A stretch of 5,487 nucleotides of DNA from a virus. Its lineage: Duplodnaviria > Heunggongvirae > Uroviricota > Caudoviricetes. The notes beneath the pieces are model-generated. The model made no database searches, was not told the DNA's origin, and saw only the letters and a list, made by a program, of their open reading frames with translations. Made by a program: the position numbers and the translations under genes. The DNA is taken from positions 1-5,487 of the IMG/VR virus record IMGVR_UViG_2671180921_000003; one strand, given 5' to 3'. Shown one piece after another: positions 124 through 5,487 of the stretch (within the stretch, counting starts at the first letter, position 1; the number at the start of each line of letters is the position of its first letter).

Positions 124-220
124 ACATTAACCTTCATTTGATTCTGCATTGAGCATATCAAAATCGGGCAATTACACAAATCTATGTACAGGCTCGGCAT
201 CCTCAATGCACCCGCACTTA

Positions 221-247
221 ACCCGCTTCGGCGGGTTTTGTTTTTTC
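221..247 (+). terminator. Rho-independent terminator (ACCCGC-UUCG-GCGGGU stem-loop plus T tract)
   Basis: Seen directly: 6-bp GC-rich stem 221-226/231-236 with a UUCG tetraloop, followed by TTTTGTTTTTT (236-247). The T tract follows the hairpin only on the + strand. Confidence 0.65.
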
Positions 248-318
248 CTGGCATTTTGGTTTACAATTCGCACGCCAGCCTGAACAACTGGCACCTGCTG
301 CGCCAGCAGAGACAACCG

Positions 319-597
319 ATGGCGCACGATACCAAATTACACAATTCTAATGATTCTGCTGTCTTTGCCAGCAGGTGCGGACGGCGTTTTCACGCATTCA
401 CATCAGACTGGTTCCAGCATCCTCCATGCACTGAAGAGCAGGCTGAATGGATAATTCAGTGTTACCGCAGGCGTGGATACGAGGTTAAGAAAGCTCTTAG
501 TCTCGACTATCGTCACTGGATAATCTCAGTCAGACTCCCTTACTCCGAATGCCCACCGCGTCCGTCCCGCACATTCCAGCAACGCATCTGGAGGTAA
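319..597 (+). CDS. Hypothetical small protein (92 aa from ATG 319); possibly the 3' remnant of a gene disrupted by the upstream IS
   Basis: Open frame ends at TAA 595-597, 1 nt before the GTG start of the DUF968 gene (operon-like packing). The ORF-track start at 184 would read through the terminator hairpin at 221-247, so ATG 319 is preferred. Shine-Dalgarno is weak and the product is not recognised. Confidence 0.3.
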   Translation: MAHDTKLHNSNDSAVFASRCGRRFHAFTSDWFQHPPCTEEQAEWIIQCYRRRGYEVKKALSLDYRHWIISVRLPYSECPPRPSRTFQQRIWR

Positions 598-598
598 C

Positions 599-1648
599 GT
601 GCGGGTATTACTTCGACCTGTTCCGGTACCGGAACTTGGGTTGGTGGTCCTTAAACCAGGCCGTGAATCCATGCAGGTATTCCATAACCCTCGAGTGCTT
701 GTGGAGCCGGAACCGAAAAGCATGCGCGGTCTGCCGTCCGGCATCGCCCCTGCCGTTCGCCAGCCGCTGGCGGAGGATAAATCATTACTGCCGTTTTTCA
801 GCAATGAGCGTGTGATTCGTGCTGCTGGCGGCGCTGGTGCACTGTCTGACTGGCTGTTGCGCCATGTTAAATCCTGCCAGTGGCCACACGGCGATTATCA
901 CCACAGTGAAACCGTCATTCACCGTTATGGCGCTGGCGCGATGGTGTTGTGCTGGCACTGCGACAACCAGTTGCGTGACCAGACCTCCGAATCACTCGGG
1001 CAACTTGCTCACCAAAATTTGTCAGCATGGATGATTGACGTCATACGCCATGCAATGAATGGCACGCAGGAGCGGGAATTATCTCTGGCTGAATTATCCT
1101 GGTGGGCGGTCTGCAATCAGGTGGCGGATGCACTCCCAGAGTCAGTATTACGTCGTTCTCTGGGGTTACGTGCGGACAAAATCCGCTCAGTGTACCGCGA
1201 AAGCGACATTGTACCGGGAGAGCAGAGCGCCACCAGCATACTGAAGCAGCGCACAAAAAATCTTGCGCCGTTGCTTCACACCCACCAGCCACAGAACCCA
1301 GCACAGGAAAAGCAGGTGGTCAGCATTGCCGTTGATCCGGAGTCTCCGGAATCTTTCATGAGGCGACCTAAACGTCGCCGTTGGGTAAATGAGAAATATA
1401 CGCGCTGGGTGAAGACACAGCCGTGTGCGTGTTGTGGTCAACCAGCCGACGATCCCCATCACCTGATTGGTCACGGTCAGGGAGGGATGGGAACAAAGGC
1501 CCACGATATTTTCACGCTACCGTTGTGCCGGGAACATCACAACGAACTTCATGCGGATCCGCTGGCGTTCGAAGAAAAGCATGGTTCTCAGGTTGATTTA
1601 ATTTTTCGTTTTCTTGATCACGCCTTTGCAACCGGCGTGCTTGGGTAA
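599..1648 (+). CDS. DUF968 family prophage protein (YdfU-like) with a C-terminal HNH-like Cys/His motif
   Basis: 349-aa ORF with GTG start and GGAGG Shine-Dalgarno 4 nt upstream. The sequence closely resembles my recollection of E. coli Qin prophage YdfU (DUF968). C-terminal motif CACCG..DDPHH..C-REHH-NELH (nt ~1424-1552) and a second Cys/His cluster at nt ~875-961. Sits directly upstream of rusA, as in many lambdoid prophages. Confidence 0.85.
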   Translation: MRVLLRPVPVPELGLVVLKPGRESMQVFHNPRVLVEPEPKSMRGLPSGIAPAVRQPLAEDKSLLPFFSNERVIRAAGGAGALSDWLLRHVKSCQWPHGDYHHSETVIHRYGAGAMVLCWHCDNQLRDQTSESLGQLAHQNLSAWMIDVIRHAMNGTQERELSLAELSWWAVCNQVADALPESVLRRSLGLRADKIRSVYRESDIVPGEQSATSILKQRTKNLAPLLHTHQPQNPAQEKQVVSIAVDPESPESFMRRPKRRRWVNEKYTRWVKTQPCACCGQPADDPHHLIGHGQGGMGTKAHDIFTLPLCREHHNELHADPLAFEEKHGSQVDLIFRFLDHAFATGVLG

Positions 1649-1660
1649 AAGAGGTTACTG

Positions 1661-2020
1661 ATGCGTATAGAGTTTGTTTTGCCTTATCCGCCGACGGTGA
1701 ATACTTACTGGCGACGTCGTGGCAGCACATATTTTGTATCAAAAGTCGGTGAGTGTTATCGCCGTGATGTGGCACTAATTGTTCGCCAGCAGCGGTTGAA
1801 ATTAAACCTGTCCGGAAGGCTGGCAATAAAAATTATTGCAGAGCCACCGGATAAGCGCCGCCGCGACCTGGACAATATCCTGAAGGCACCACTGGATGCG
1901 CTGACGCATGCCGGACTTCTCATAGACGACGAGCAGTTTGATGAAATCAATATTGTGCGCGGACTGCCTGTTCCTGGTGGTCGGCTGGGGATAAAAATCA
2001 CAGAACTGGAGTGCGCATGA
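1661..2020 (+). CDS. rusA: Crossover junction endodeoxyribonuclease RusA (Holliday junction resolvase)
   Basis: 119-aa product with RusA family hallmarks (PPxxNxYxRRRG near the N-terminus, DxRRRDLDN..K..DAL..AG, DDxQ, GGRL..ITE) and the same length as E. coli RusA. AAGAGG Shine-Dalgarno 7 nt upstream of ATG 1661. Confidence 0.9.
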   Translation: MRIEFVLPYPPTVNTYWRRRGSTYFVSKVGECYRRDVALIVRQQRLKLNLSGRLAIKIIAEPPDKRRRDLDNILKAPLDALTHAGLLIDDEQFDEINIVRGLPVPGGRLGIKITELECA

Positions 2021-2706
2021 ATAACCAGTATTTACAGTTTGTGCGTGAGCAGCTCATTATCGCTACCGCTGATTTGAGTGGGGCAACAAAAGGTCAGCTT
2101 GAAGCCTGGCAGGAGAATGCCATGTTTGATACAGGGCGTTACAGGCGTAAAAAAATCCGGTACCGCGATGAAGTGACTGGAAGAATGATAACGCGGGATA
2201 GTCCACCGATACCGGGAAAACAATCACTGGCGAAAGGCTCATCAATTGCTCTGGTAAGTCAGGTTGAGTTTTCGACATCATCATGGCGACGGGCAGTTCT
2301 GTCTCTTGAAGAACTTCATAAAGCCTGGTTGTTGTGGTGTTACAGCGGGAGTATTTATTGGGAATATCAGATCGCGATAACACAGTGGGCGTGGAATGAA
2401 TTTAATGCTCAATCCGGTACCAGAAAAATTGCAGGGAAAACGCAGGAACGCCTGAAAAAATTAATCTGGCTGGCGGCGCAGGCAGTAAAAGCAGAACTTT
2501 TTGGTGGGGAAGGTTATGAATACCAGGAGCTGGCATTACTGGCGGGAGTGACAACTAAAAACTGGTCAAAAACATTTACTCGTCACTGGGTTGCAATGAA
2601 ACACATTTTTCACCGACTGGATAGTGAGGCTTTATTGTTTGTAATGAGAACACGTTCAAAACAAAAGACGGCATTTTCAAAGCAAAGTGTTGCAAAAGTA
2701 GATTGA
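2017..2706 (+). CDS. Putative late-gene antiterminator (Q-like), 229 aa
   Basis: Called mainly on synteny: immediately downstream of rusA (ATGA start/stop overlap at 2017-2020, GGAG 6 nt upstream) and immediately upstream of a promoter-terminator pair, tRNAs and the lysis genes. I do not recognise a specific Q family from the sequence. The ORF track starts at GTG 2011; ATG 2017 is preferred. Confidence 0.6.
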   Translation: MNNQYLQFVREQLIIATADLSGATKGQLEAWQENAMFDTGRYRRKKIRYRDEVTGRMITRDSPPIPGKQSLAKGSSIALVSQVEFSTSSWRRAVLSLEELHKAWLLWCYSGSIYWEYQIAITQWAWNEFNAQSGTRKIAGKTQERLKKLIWLAAQAVKAELFGGEGYEYQELALLAGVTTKNWSKTFTRHWVAMKHIFHRLDSEALLFVMRTRSKQKTAFSKQSVAKVD

Positions 2707-2718
2707 AAGGCATATATT
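2690..2718 (+). promoter_or_regulatory. Candidate sigma70 late promoter (pR'-like): -35 TTGCAA, 17-bp spacer, -10 TATATT
   Basis: Seen directly: TTGCAA at 2690-2695 and TATATT at 2713-2718 overlapping the 3' end of the Q-like gene. A second -10-like element with TG (cTGATATT, 2729-2736) lies about 12 nt downstream, as expected for a sigma70-dependent pause element in lambdoid pR' regions. Confidence 0.4.
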
Positions 2719-2770
2719 TCATGCAAATCTGATATTTTGCCGATTTTGTACGTGATGGCAAAAGCAAACA

Positions 2771-2796
2771 AAACCCGCCCACAAGCGGGTTTTTTG
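2771..2796 (+). terminator. Rho-independent terminator (tR'-like) about 65 nt downstream of the Q-like gene
   Basis: Stem AAACCCGC (2771-2778) / GCGGGTTT (2785-2792), 6-nt loop, T tract 2790-2795. With the upstream promoter it would give a short (~70 nt) transcript, as in lambdoid pR'-tR' units. Confidence 0.7.
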
Positions 2797-2877
2797 TGCC
2801 ACTTATCTCGGATAGGCATGGTGAATGCGCTGGTGGAGGAGATAAGGGTGATTTTTAATCAGGTGATTTTTGAATGC

Positions 2878-2906
2878 TTGCAACATTGATTTCGTAACAT
2901 TATTAT
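2878..2906 (+). promoter_or_regulatory. Strong sigma70 promoter for the tRNA cluster: -35 TTGCAA, 17-bp spacer, -10 TATTAT, GC-rich discriminator
   Basis: TTGCAA 2878-2883 and TATTAT 2901-2906, followed by CCTGCGCCC; predicted start 2-3 nt before the mature tRNA 5' end at 2916. Upstream direct repeat of AGGTGATTTTT (2847-2859 and 2862-2875) provides UP-element-like A/T tracts. Confidence 0.5.
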
Positions 2907-2915
2907 CCTGCGCCC

Positions 2916-2991
2916 GGCCCTTTAGCTCAGTGGTGAGAGCGAGCGACTCATAATCGCCAGGTCGCTGGTTCAAATCCAGCAAGGGCCACCA
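2916..2991 (+). tRNA. ileZ: tRNA-Ile2-like (anticodon CAU; tools often label it tRNA-Met), ileZ/ileX-like, 76 nt with encoded CCA
   Basis: Full cloverleaf folded by hand: acceptor GGCCCTT/AAGGGCC, D-arm GCTC-AGTGGTGA-GAGC, anticodon loop CTCATAA (CAT at 2949-2951), T-arm GCTGG-TTCAAAT-CCAGC, discriminator A, CCA. Very similar to my recollection of E. coli ileX, and in the Q-downstream position where lambdoid and Stx phages carry ileZ. Confidence 0.85.
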
Positions 2992-2992
2992 A

Positions 2993-3068
2993 CCGCCACT
3001 AGCCATCAGGAAAGAGCGTCAACCCTTTAAGTTGAGTGTGCGAGGTTCGAGTCCCCGGTGGTGGTCCA
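2993..3068 (+). tRNA. Atypical tRNA-like gene (76 nt, CCA encoded); best fold gives anticodon UUU with C33; possibly degenerate
   Basis: Acceptor stem CCGCCAC/GTGGTGG (one G-U), anticodon stem TCAAC/GTTGA with loop CCTTTAA (3024-3030), T-arm CGAGG-TTCGAGT-CCCCG with one A-C mismatch, D-stem only 2 clean pairs, discriminator U. It occupies the middle slot of the ileZ-argN-argO trio known from lambdoid phages but does not fold as a standard tRNA-Arg. Confidence 0.45.
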
Positions 3069-3081
3069 TTATCAGTATTCT

Positions 3082-3158
3082 GCGTTGTTAGCTCAGCAGG
3101 ACAGAGCAATTGCCTTCTAAGCAATCGGTCACTGGTTCGACTCCAGTACAACGCGCCA
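3082..3158 (+). tRNA. tRNA-Arg (anticodon UCU, reads AGA), 77 nt with encoded CCA
   Basis: Acceptor GCGTTGT/ACAACGC, D-arm GCTC..GAGC, anticodon stem ATTGC/GCAAT with loop CTTCTAA (TCT at 3116-3118), T-arm ACTGG-TTCGACT-CCAGT, discriminator G, CCA. Corresponds to the argN/argO-type rare-codon tRNA of lambdoid phages; which of the two names applies is not resolved. Confidence 0.85.
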
Positions 3159-3171
3159 CACTTATTTTCCC

Positions 3172-3195
3172 GGCTCGCTTTTGCGGGCCTTTTTT
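3172..3195 (+). terminator. Rho-independent terminator after the tRNA cluster
   Basis: Stem GGCTCGC (3172-3178) / GCGGGCC (3183-3189) with one G-U pair, UUUU loop, then TTTTTT 3190-3195. Confidence 0.65.
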
Positions 3196-3328
3196 GTATC
3201 TGCGCCACGCCCGGCGCATATCAACCACAGAGCCTTTCAGGGGGGAGCCATAGGGAACGGTCGGTGTGACTGTCTCTGTGGGCTGATCATTCCTGAGTGC
3301 TGGCTCACCCACCCAAAGGAACGTCACG

Positions 3329-3760
3329 ATGTTTGGAATCTTCAAAAAGAAAACCCGCAGAGCGGCAGCGGAAATTAAAAAGTTTGAGAAACGCGATCTG
3401 GCACAGGCGGTGATTAACGCTGCATACCTGGTGGCCTATGCAGATGGTGAATGCGAGGCATCTGAGAAAGCGAAGATCGAACAGGTCTTACGTAATCAGC
3501 CTGCGTTGTCTGCGTTTACCTCGGAAATTAATGCGATTAGCGCAACTATTATCGGTCAGCTGGATACCAATTTTAAAATTGGTCGTCGTGCCGCGTTACG
3601 CGAGATTGAGGATGTGAAACACGATGCGCGTGAAGCGGAAGATGTGCTGGATGTGGCGGTGGCCATTGCGGAGGCAGACGGCGAAATTGAGCCGGAAGAG
3701 CGCAAGGTGCTGGAAGAGATTGCCGGTGTTCTGGGTCTTCGTCTGGAGAATCACCTGTGA
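3329..3760 (+). CDS. TerB-like (tellurite-resistance TerB family) protein, 143 aa
   Basis: ATG 3329 with AAAGGA Shine-Dalgarno 8 nt upstream. Acidic helical protein with two repeated Y/A-x-ADGE..E-x-E-K..L modules (AYADGECEASEKAKIEQVL and AIAEADGEIEPEERKVLEEIA), which I associate with the TerB fold. Family call is from memory, not a search. Confidence 0.7.
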   Translation: MFGIFKKKTRRAAAEIKKFEKRDLAQAVINAAYLVAYADGECEASEKAKIEQVLRNQPALSAFTSEINAISATIIGQLDTNFKIGRRAALREIEDVKHDAREAEDVLDVAVAIAEADGEIEPEERKVLEEIAGVLGLRLENHL

Positions 3761-3924
3761 CGGTAAAACTGCGCCTGGCTGTGGCTGCACTCCTGCTGTT
3801 TCTGGTGGTGATGGTGGATTTCACCAGCAGAATCATGTCGGTGCTGGCGGATGGGGTGCTGGTCTGCGGCATTGTGGTATTGCTGTGGCCGGTGATAAAA
3901 AGAAACAGCCTGTATAATGCTTGA
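3757..3924 (+). CDS. Small hydrophobic membrane peptide (55 aa, two predicted transmembrane helices), translationally coupled to the TerB-like gene
   Basis: GTG start at 3757 overlaps the TerB stop (GTGA); GGAG at 3745-3748 lies 8 nt upstream. Product VTVKLRLAVAALLLFLVVMVDFTSRIMSVLADGVLVCGIVVLLWPVIKRNSLYNA. Absent from the ORF track because it is under 60 codons. Internal ATGs at 3811 and 3835 are alternative starts. Confidence 0.45.
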   Translation: MTVKLRLAVAALLLFLVVMVDFTSRIMSVLADGVLVCGIVVLLWPVIKRNSLYNA

Positions 3925-4139
3925 TTTTTTTGTTTGCTGTTTATTAAAAACACTTCTGCATGGTGAATCCCCCTGTGCGGAGGGGCGACTGGTGTAGGTA
4001 GCATTTATTATGTTGTAGGCAAGCCGACGCGGGTTCAGTGACACCGGCTGAATTCACCGGGAGGCACCCGGCACCATGCTTTGCCACAAAAGTGTTATTT
4101 CTGTTTTTCTCAAACTATCATCGTTATTCCTTTATTTCC

Positions 4140-4166
4140 GGCTGCGCATGGCGCGGCCTTTTTTTT
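4140..4166 (+). terminator. Strong rho-independent terminator (8-bp GC stem plus 8 T)
   Basis: Stem GGCTGCGC (4140-4147) / GCGCGGCC (4151-4158) with one G-U pair, followed by TTTTTTTT 4159-4166. The T tract follows the hairpin on the + strand only. Confidence 0.75.
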
Positions 4167-4252
4167 ACGACCAGCCACTGGCAGATGGTCATCCTGTGAT
4201 TTGATTCCGGTTCCGGCTTTTTAACTCTGTTCCTGTACACGGGAGAAATTCG

Positions 4253-4423
4253 ATGTCGATTAAACATTACGATGTTGTCAGGGCGGCGTCGCCGTCAGAC
4301 CTTGCGGAAAAGCTGACACACAAACTGAAAGAGGCCTGGCAGCCGTTTGGTAGTCCGGTGGACATAACTCCTTATACCCTGATGCAGGCGATTGCAGCAG
4401 AAGGTGATGTGGTGGTCAAGTAA
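4253..4423 (+). CDS. Small conserved prophage protein, 56 aa (tentatively DUF1737-like)
   Basis: ATG 4253 with GGGAGA Shine-Dalgarno 6 nt upstream, stop TAA 4421-4423. Product MSIKHYDVVRAASPSDLAEKLTHKLKEAWQPFGSPVDITPYTLMQAIAAEGDVVVK. The DUF assignment is a tentative recollection. Confidence 0.55.
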   Translation: MSIKHYDVVRAASPSDLAEKLTHKLKEAWQPFGSPVDITPYTLMQAIAAEGDVVVK

Positions 4424-4599
4424 TACTGGCCACAGTTACCCAGAAACTGAATGGAGTTGCAGGTTCGGCACTCCAGGTCATAAAAGACAGTCTGACACTG
4501 AGCCTGAATGCGCTGACGCTGACGGATGTTACAAAAAGTGCAGCGTATGGCGTTGAGATAGAAAGTCTGGTGCTGGAGATGAATGCACCGGCAGCATAA
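4408..4599 (+). CDS. 63-codon open frame with protein-like composition but no ATG/GTG/TTG start (possible pseudogene, non-canonical start, or recoding); product tentatively resembles small DUF826-type prophage proteins
   Basis: This frame is open from just after TGA 4405-4407 to TAA 4597-4599 and translates to ..GQVILATVTQKLNGVAGSALQVIKDSLTLSLNALTLTDVTKSAAYGVEIESLVLEMNAPAA. It overlaps the 3' end of the upstream gene by 16 nt. A strong Shine-Dalgarno-like AAGGTGAT sits at 4401-4408, but the only in-frame candidate starts are ATA 4423 or CTG 4426. Confidence 0.3.
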   Translation, partial: CGGQVILATVTQKLNGVAGSALQVIKDSLTLSLNALTLTDVTKSAAYGVEIESLVLEMNAPAA

Positions 4600-4607
4600 T
4601 AAAAAAG

Positions 4608-4637
4608 AGCCAGCGCCCACTCTGAAGGACGCTGGCT
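4608..4637. other. Stem-loop AGCCAGCG / CGCTGGCT (8-bp stem, 14-nt loop) flanked by A tracts
   Basis: Seen directly. AAAAAAG lies upstream and AAAAGG downstream, so a U tract would follow the hairpin only on the minus-strand transcript; possible minus-strand terminator or recombination scar. Confidence 0.4.
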
Positions 4638-4752
4638 AAAAGGCCTTATATGTTTGTAGAGACTTATTTTTCACAGACAGCAATGATGTCTGTCAATATA
4701 TTATCAATATGCGGATTGTTTCAGTTACAGATGCTTTATTAAAGAAAAAAAC

Positions 4753-4787
4753 AGCCAGCACTGACTTTCGGTGGAGAGGTGCTGGCT
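4753..4787. other. Stem-loop AGCCAGCAC / GTGCTGGCT (9-bp stem, 17-nt loop) flanked by A tracts; paralog of the 4608-4637 hairpin
   Basis: Seen directly. Same AGCCAGC core and same A-tract context (AAAGAAAAAAAC upstream, CAAAAGG downstream) as the hairpin at 4608-4637. Confidence 0.4.
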
Positions 4788-4961
4788 CAAAAGGATAGAT
4801 GGACTTCACATGTTGCTTCTATATGGCGGTACATTTTCTGACAGACAGTGACGGATGTTGTCAAGATATTGTGTCATTTATAACCTGAATCAGGGGAGGC
4901 CGGAATGTTATCTGGCATTTTTAGCAGAGCCTGAATGCCATAATCACGGCTCCCGGAGTTG

Positions 4962-4992
4962 GCCGTCAGTGGGTGACACTGGCGGCTTTTTT
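4962..4992 (+). terminator. Rho-independent terminator about 50 nt upstream of the holin start
   Basis: 10-bp stem GCCGTCAGTG (4962-4971) / CACTGGCGGC (4977-4986) with one G-U pair, 5-nt loop, then TTTTTT 4987-4992 followed by further T-rich sequence. Confidence 0.75.
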
Positions 4993-5042
4993 GTTTTTCT
5001 TTACTTTCATTTTCTGTCGGCGGTGACGGAGACATACATCAG

Positions 5043-5249
5043 ATGGAAAAAATCACAACAGGTGTGTCATACACCACGTCAGCGGTGGGGACGGGATACT
5101 GGTTACTGCAGCTGCTGGACAAAGTCTCTCCATCCCAGTGGGTGGCAATAGGTGTATTGGGTAGCCTGCTGTTTGGCCTGCTGACGTATCTGACAAACCT
5201 TTATTTCAAGATTAAAGAAGATAAGCGTAAGGCTGCACGGGGAGAGTAA
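5043..5249 (+). CDS. S: Class II holin, phage 21 S (S21) family pinholin-like lysis protein, 68 aa
   Basis: Product [68 protein letters not shown] is near-collinear with my recollection of S21 / DLP12 EssD (..[45 protein letters not shown]). GGAG 11 nt upstream. Confidence 0.9.
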
Positions 5250-5253
5250 TTCA

Positions 5254-5487
5254 ATGACTCAAAACTATGAACTGATTGTGAAAGGGATCCGCAATTTTGA
5301 GAATAAAGTTACGGTAACTTTAGCGTTACGGGACAAAAAACGCTTTGACGGTGAAATTTTTGACCTGGACATCTCGCTGGACCGTGTTGAAGGTGCCGCG
5401 CTGGAGGTTTATGAGGCTGCAGCCAGAAGGAGCATCAGACAGGTCTTCCTGGATGTTGCTGCCGGGTTATGTGAAGGGGACGAGCTG
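5254..5487 (+). CDS. Hypothetical protein, 5' part only (78 codons visible; continues past the window end)
   Basis: ATG 5254 with GGGGAGAG Shine-Dalgarno 7 nt upstream, 4 nt after the holin stop; open to the end of the window. Product MTQNYELIVKGIRNFENKVTVTLALRDKKRFDGEIFDLDISLDRVEGAALEVYEAAARRSIRQVFLDVAAGLCEGDEL is soluble and has no signal-arrest-release or transmembrane N-terminus, so it is not an S21-type SAR endolysin. Confidence 0.55.
   Translation, partial: MTQNYELIVKGIRNFENKVTVTLALRDKKRFDGEIFDLDISLDRVEGAALEVYEAAARRSIRQVFLDVAAGLCEGDEL

Follow-up and report, generated by a model that had tools for sequence, protein, structure and literature searches.

Can a reading frame be a small gene if it has an apparent ribosome-binding site in front of it and a double stop codon behind it, but no start codon? 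The question is raised by positions 4408–4599 of the DNA stretch analysed here, whose whole length of 5,487 nt is referred to as the window. After a TGA at 4405–4407 the frame runs through 63 open codons (4408–4596) to a TAA at 4597–4599, followed by a second TAA at 4600–4602. Its first 16 nt (4408–4423) are common to an upstream ORF of 56 codons, 4253–4423. The motif AAGGTGAT, which resembles a Shine-Dalgarno (SD) sequence, lies at 4401–4408, and ATVTQKLNGVAGSALQ... belongs to the peptide that the frame encodes. These features were pointed out in a preliminary description made from the sequence alone. The open frame and its tandem TAA TAA can be read directly in the sequence, and the overlap with the preceding gene and the location of GTG 4409 and GTG 4412 in the frame of that gene are likewise confirmed. 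Because the six frames of the window contain 41 stop-free stretches of at least 63 codons, the openness and length of the frame are uninformative on their own; it is homology that sets it apart.

The answer reached here is that the locus 4253–4599 is almost certainly a dead, internally deleted nanS-p gene, the start-less frame being what remains of its 3′ end rather than a gene that starts in an unusual way. Members of the nanS-p family, known from Stx prophages and from other lambdoid ones, encode a prophage 9-O-acetyl-N-acetylneuraminic acid esterase in which a DUF1737 domain is followed by a SASA catalytic domain and, at the C-terminus, by a lectin-like domain. Named examples are L0105 of 933W and gp84 (vb_24B_21) of phi24B, and the corresponding PGAP product name is 'SASA family carbohydrate esterase'.

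The window represents the region of late regulation and lysis in a lambdoid E. coli prophage. It encodes a DUF968 protein (599–1648), RusA (1661–2020), antiterminator Q (2011–2706), three tRNAs (2916–3158), a TerB-family protein (3329–3760), a DUF3927 protein (3757–3924), a P21-type holin (5043–5249) and a YdfR-like ORF starting at 5254. RusA and the YdfR-like ORF are named from syntenic annotation (PGAP for RusA), the tRNAs were located using ARAGORN, and the remainder were identified using Pfam. The STnc100 sRNA is found on the plus strand at 3929–4115 as a full-length match to RF02076 (116 bits, E 8e-26). It is just upstream of the esterase remnant, with a terminator beyond it at 4140–4166; PasD/STnc100 has been placed at the same position relative to prophage sialic-acid esterase genes (10.64898/2026.05.13.724894).

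Some details of this region are worth adding. The first tRNA (anticodon CAT) is assigned to Met by ARAGORN and to Ile by PGAP. The middle one, 2993–3068, is a tRNA-Lys (anticodon ttt) according to both, with the Rfam tRNA model silent at E<=0.1; a syntenic O157 prophage has a tRNA-Arg in this slot. Directly after Q, at 2723–2795, Rfam gives a weak isrK-like match, its 22.7 bits falling short of the gathering score (50). A GC hairpin and T-run, read directly in the sequence, close this match, which probably represents the pR′ leader together with tR′, the late-operon terminator. A 47-codon ORF on the minus strand (4124–4267) overlaps the start of the 56-codon ORF and is unrelated to the deletion; in PGAP it is a pseudogene fragment without either terminus, beside deleted as well as intact esterase alleles.

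The fate of the gene is seen most directly by comparison with intact relatives. In strain 20.1 (locus L003), DUF3927 and the holin flank an intact esterase gene of 1,851 nt, in exactly the place of the window's two small ORFs. The prophage of O157 strain HB6 (L093) has the gene order of the window throughout, namely DUF968, RusA, Q, three tRNAs, TerB, DUF3927, esterase, holin and YdfR, and aligns with it as two colinear blocks. Window positions 196–4418 correspond to L093 1–4219 with 92% identity, and 4429–5480 to L093 5734–6790 with 88% identity. There is only one large difference between the two, where 1,514 nt in L093 are represented by 10 nt in the window, and the 1,514 nt lie wholly within an intact esterase gene (4054–5904, 1,851 nt, not annotated as a pseudogene). 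One intact gene thus matches both ends of the locus, in unchanged order and context. In a megablast search of 5,426 complete E. coli genomes the region 4230–4640 likewise splits in two, the first part matching genes annotated 'SASA family carbohydrate esterase' at their 5′ ends, and 4429–4640 matching such genes at their 3′ ends.

Aligned base by base with the strain 20.1 gene, the window lacks gene nt 167–1680. The left break follows nt 166, so that window 4253–4418 comprises codons 1–55 and one further base, and the match is taken up again at codon 561, with its first base. Between them, at 4419–4428, the 10 nt AGTAATACTG replace the 1,514 nt. In net terms 1,504 nt are lost, a number that is 1 mod 3, and the 3′ codons are for this reason in the -1 frame with respect to the 5′ codons. 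The deletion removed all of the catalytic domain together with roughly two thirds of the C-terminal one, and the filler supplies codon 56 (AAG, Lys) and the TAA stop to the 5′ remnant. The right break falls within Pfam DUF6645 (residues 467–577) and within a domain of solved structure, as would be expected of a deletion rather than of a domain boundary.

The two remnants can be assigned with confidence. The upstream ORF (4253–4423, plus strand) matches Pfam DUF1737 (PF08410) over residues 4–50 with E 4e-14, and its nucleotide sequence is 92–94% identical to the 5′ ends of the intact genes of strains 20.1 and HB6. [quoted passage not shown] The 3′ remnant (4429–4599, plus strand) comprises codons 561–616 and the stop, with 93% nucleotide identity to the intact gene. 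By BLASTP, residues 8–63 of the start-less frame align with residues 561–616 of the strain 20.1 protein, with 50 of 56 identical (89%, E 3e-30). The suggestions that the frame is protein-like and that it is linked to the upstream 56-aa ORF are thereby borne out: it is former coding sequence, and the two ORFs are the two ends of one gene. The alignment begins only at residue 8, and 4408–4428 is a chance upstream extension of the open frame. The first seven residues encoded there, CGGQVIL, are out-of-frame DUF1737 codons 52–56 plus filler, and match no esterase residue. In a collection of 5.8 billion protein sequences, this N-terminal extension including QVIL is covered only by the fragment itself (P0001, labelled 'partial'), and no other hit to the 63-aa query covers more than 89% of it.

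The domains of the intact protein make clear what has been lost. In the strain 20.1 protein Pfam identifies DUF1737 (residues 3–50), SASA (66–262) and DUF6645 (467–577). Residues 59–379 match the structure of NanS/YjhS (3pt5, E 6e-122) and residues 421–613 that of the NanS-p C-terminal domain (6yp6, E 2e-29). No SASA domain was found by Pfam in either ORF of the locus, which cannot encode an esterase; the prophage in the window has thus lost its NanS-p enzyme. DUF6645 was not detected by Pfam in the 63-aa translation, in which a complete C-terminal lectin-like jelly-roll is absent: the last 56 of about 200 residues are left, with a weak match to 6yp6 (E 0.27, residues 167–217). The composition of the frame had been described as helix-like. 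The homologous residues, however, are the C-terminal end of the domain in 6yp6, and on the basis of the literature and the alignments the tail would correspond to the end of a β-sandwich, not to a helical peptide.

The same interpretation is already present in RefSeq, where both halves are marked by PGAP as incomplete pseudogenes; this holds for seven records, including L001, L087, L088, L089, L090 and L091. In RM14723, which is 99% identical to the window, they appear as 'DUF1737 domain-containing protein, missing C-terminus' (window 4253–4417) and 'hypothetical protein, missing N-terminus' (window 4429–4599). The gene family is thus a known one and its decay is routine.

We now consider whether the tail could nevertheless be a genuine small gene whose translation begins at a non-canonical codon (GTA 4420, ATA 4423 or CTG 4426), with AAGGTGAT serving as the ribosome-binding site. 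In favour of this, the frame is indeed open, with the motif at 4401–4408. Its role is another matter, since it is read as GAA GGT GAT, codons E50-G51-D52 of DUF1737. Among 83 loci, the sequence TGATGTGGTG is present in 42, and AAGGTGAT occurs unchanged in mid-gene in 41–42, nearly all of them intact alleles. The motif is thus best described as internal, conserved DUF1737 coding sequence and not as a ribosome-binding site for a downstream gene. Its SD-like core ends 11–17 nt before the candidate start codons, a spacing that exceeds the usual range. The proposal of initiation at ATA 4423 or CTG 4426 consequently finds no support, the apparent SD being accounted for by codons 50–52.

Nor is a canonical start available. 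The preliminary description stated that there is no ATG, GTG or TTG before codon 58; there is in fact an in-frame GTG at codon 55 (4570–4572), the first canonical start in the frame, which is of no practical relevance. The ATG at codon 58 is found in the window alone, with ATA in all six (6/6) other copies of the deletion allele, and ATA or Ile at this place in the intact alleles that were read. A start is missing from the frame in every aligned copy of the deletion allele, and no canonical start with a well-spaced ribosome-binding site is conserved in the homologues. The product would moreover be 56 residues cut from a β-sandwich domain of about 200 residues. A small gene at this place is thus very unlikely, and two further points that bear on it, one of them in its favour, are taken up below with the other alleles and with the substitution pattern.

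A second possibility is that the DUF1737 ORF is joined to the tail by programmed -1 frameshifting of the ribosome. The geometry is suitable: seen from the stub, the tail is in the -1 frame, and the two share 16 nt (4408–4423). A deletion of length 1 mod 3 accounts fully for the frame relation, however, and the overlap consists of junction filler rather than conserved sequence. The preliminary description had rightly noted the absence of a classic slippery heptamer: none occurs in 4408–4423, and the sequence T GTG GTG GTC AAG TAA contains no X XXY YYZ. Recoding without a slippery site would, furthermore, append to the 56-aa protein only 56 residues of a β-sandwich of about 200. We consider this explanation hardly credible.

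Loss of the start of a small gene through a recent indel of 1 nt, or through an error in sequencing or assembly, has also to be considered; nothing speaks for it beyond the missing start codon itself. An 81-nt junction probe was found in 13 complete genomes, from dog, chicken and human isolates, and in several large plasmids, with an identical junction and frame relation. When the window was aligned with six copies (L001, L087, L088, L089, L090 and L091), positions 4408–4432 were identical in all. Positions 4405–4407 were identical in the five copies that span them, L087 being cut upstream of about 4408 by an IS element. Elsewhere the copies differ by up to about 6%. Because the junction is base-for-base identical in copies that differ elsewhere, sequencing error and a 1-nt indel are excluded. 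The only length difference between the window and RM14723 is in the A-run past the stop codon. An error or small indel is therefore so improbable as to be negligible, and this suggestion can be regarded as already refuted. The alignment with homologous prophages that had been proposed does answer the question, but what it reveals is an internal deletion of about 1.5 kb in place of a 1-nt difference.

The plasmid copies of the junction are IS-flanked debris. The deletion allele is present with an identical junction on virulence plasmids of about 100 kb, NZ_CP045828 (L087 3001–3192) and NZ_AP029606 (L088 2870–3210), amid fragments of IS200/IS605, IS4 and IS66 and close to genes for OspG-family and TcdA/TcdB-like effectors. 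Their DUF1737 part is further frameshifted or cut off. Plasmid matches covering 4408–4470 were considered as a possible intact source gene and rejected, being the same deletion allele further truncated by IS elements.

The feature that fits least well with an internal deletion is the filler. Ten nucleotides at the junction are not accounted for by a single clean deletion, and this counts against the main interpretation. The best match of the filler within the deleted segment of an intact allele is 6/10 (P ~0.75). A match of 8/10 to CFT073-type sequence (P ~0.02) was chosen post hoc, and as a source of the filler it is suggestive only. The filler may reflect decay in several steps or may be untemplated. 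Repeat finding in 4100–5100 gave only short matches, probably due to chance. Among 80 esterase-related and 80 DUF1737-related IMG/VR loci, no intact allele carries the junction residues QVILATVTQ or the filler, and the collection of 5.8 billion proteins yielded only the fragment itself and other partial NanS fragments. An intact allele with a tail more than 89–93% identical to that of the window was not recovered.

The window is not alone in having lost this part of the gene. Independent nanS-p deletions with different junctions are found in other E. coli, and the catalytic core has been lost through internal deletion several times independently in E. coli prophages. The allele shared by the window and RM14723 joins gene nt 166 to 1681 with the 10-nt filler (net loss 1,504 nt). 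That of CFT073 and FDAARGOS_1304 joins nt 220 to 1712 with a 16-nt overlap (net loss 1,507 nt), and that of PNUSAE019785 joins nt 93 to 1117 with a 10-nt overlap (net loss 1,033 nt). The net loss is 1 mod 3 at all three junctions (-1504, -1507, -1033), which with n=3 may be chance. Short forms covering at least 80% of the query are found in about 850 of 5,426 complete E. coli genomes and are mostly of the CFT073 type; the CFT073-type short allele (L002 1494–1840) is in about 840 other genomes.

The CFT073 type provides the one further argument for a small gene. In this independently deleted allele a GTG is present at the equivalent position, overlapping the TGA of the stub (GTGA, in GAGTGATAC), and PGAP calls a 53-aa ORF there. 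The arrangement looks like translational coupling. At the comparable place the window has AAGTAATAC, with GTA and hence no start, and the GTG of CFT073 is GTA in every copy of the window's allele.

It could also be proposed that the short form is ancestral, as a two-ORF module into which an esterase cassette was inserted in other phages. DUF1737 is mostly found as a single domain (2,528 of about 3,000 Pfam entries; 10.64898/2026.04.10.717836), and the number of E. coli genomes with short forms, given above, is compatible with this. The right breakpoint, however, lies inside a folded domain and inside Pfam DUF6645, and the two halves are mutually out of frame, neither of which favours a module. 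There are three different junctions, two of them with microhomology of 10–16 nt in the flanking alignments, which is typical of deletion. Furthermore, the 80 closest DUF1737 sequences in IMG/VR are all long alleles, 54 of them complete ORFs of 616–645 aa. An ancestral short form thus appears extremely improbable, and deletion from a full-length gene is the preferred reading.

If the locus is a deleted gene, the two remnants may be under different constraints. Seven distinct tails of the deletion allele contain 7 synonymous and 15 non-synonymous variable sites, compared with a neutral expectation of about 1:2.7. Pooled pN/pS for the tail is 0.65 in these seven, vs 0.38 in 20 intact tails, and for DUF1737 it is 0.22 in four deletion copies vs 0.24 in 24 intact copies. 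The comparison involves few sequences, has low power and may be confounded by exchange with intact alleles through recombination. Some of the variation looks imported from such alleles, whose typical residues are found, for instance, in the L089 tail. As a hint, the pattern would fit a drifting tail and a stub that is still constrained. The substitutions in the tail thus look near-neutral, which is the remaining point against a small gene.

On the basis of these observations, the present state of the locus may be described as follows. Its position, with Q/pR′ on one side and the holin on the other, makes it likely that late-operon transcription still reaches it. The 56-aa DUF1737 stub, with a filler-encoded Lys as its last residue, may continue to be produced, as its native start is intact; the tail lacks both a start codon and an evident route to translation, and presumably remains untranslated. 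The codons of the tail are still open only because they were recently coding, and the tandem TAA TAA and the hairpin downstream are the native end of the parent gene. The lesson for annotation is that an ORF with an SD-like motif and a double stop, but no start, can be the out-of-frame 3′ end of a deleted gene.

The sequence following the stop codons deserves comment. The flank 4600–4640, made up of the second TAA, an A-run and a GC-rich hairpin at 4608–4637, is colinear with the 3′ flank of intact genes. Together with the T-run complementary to TAATAAAAAAG, the hairpin scores as an intrinsic terminator on the minus strand. A gap of 440 nt (4600–5040) separates the esterase remnant from the holin. 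Within it, a second look-alike module (A-run, GCCAGC hairpin, AAAAGG) was seen by eye near 4745–4795, and terminator-like sites on the plus strand are located at 4899–4916 and 4961–4987. Convergent anti-sRNAs of the AgvB/AsxR type were placed in such a position by Tree et al. 2014 (PMC4104026). An Rfam search of 4540–5060 for AgvB, AsxR and other known sRNAs gave nothing above noise. Such an antisense terminator, or the 3′ end of an sRNA, directly adjoining the stop codons may perhaps be the only reason why the 3′ tail is kept.

Comparison with known systems places the locus within a familiar family. It resembles nanS-p in having its DUF1737 domain, the last 56 C-terminal residues, the 3′ flank and the hairpin, and in its late-operon position between the Q/tRNA/TerB/DUF3927 block and the holin. 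It differs in lacking SASA and most of the lectin-like domain (nt 167–1680), and its two pieces are out of frame. NanS/YjhS of E. coli K-12 (3pt5) represents the parent catalytic family of the intact relatives; it has itself neither DUF1737 nor the C-terminal domain, and the part homologous to it is wholly gone from the window. NanS-p has been proposed to aid the use by E. coli of O-acetylated sialic acids from mucus (PMC10462455). The closest parallel in structure is the CFT073-type allele, annotated as a DUF1737 pseudogene and a 53-aa protein (WP_001327246.1). It has a deletion of about 1.5 kb, a stub with a tail in the -1 frame, and the same prophage position as the window's remnant, but its junction is its own (220 to 1712), it keeps the GTG, and it is about 85% identical to the window in nucleotide sequence.

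In phi24B, the DUF1737 part of gp84 is reported to decorate the capsid, on which it stays behind when the protein is cleaved near residue 54–57 (10.64898/2026.04.10.717836). The 56-aa stub of the window is a DUF1737 domain of a length close to that of the phi24B capsid fragment (residues 1 to about 54–57), and by analogy it might serve as a capsid-decoration protein. It is possible, though on balance doubtful, that the deletion created a free-standing DUF1737 decoration protein, that the stub has been kept by selection, and that recurrent deletions shed the enzyme while keeping the module. If true, recurrent internal deletion would be a regular route by which lambdoid phages shed the enzyme and keep the decoration module. 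Two differences from phi24B should be borne in mind: the short protein of the window would arise by truncation of the gene and not by proteolytic processing, and the 99%-identical copy resides in a lambda-like siphovirus prophage whose tape-measure gene is frameshifted, whereas phi24B-like phages are podoviruses.
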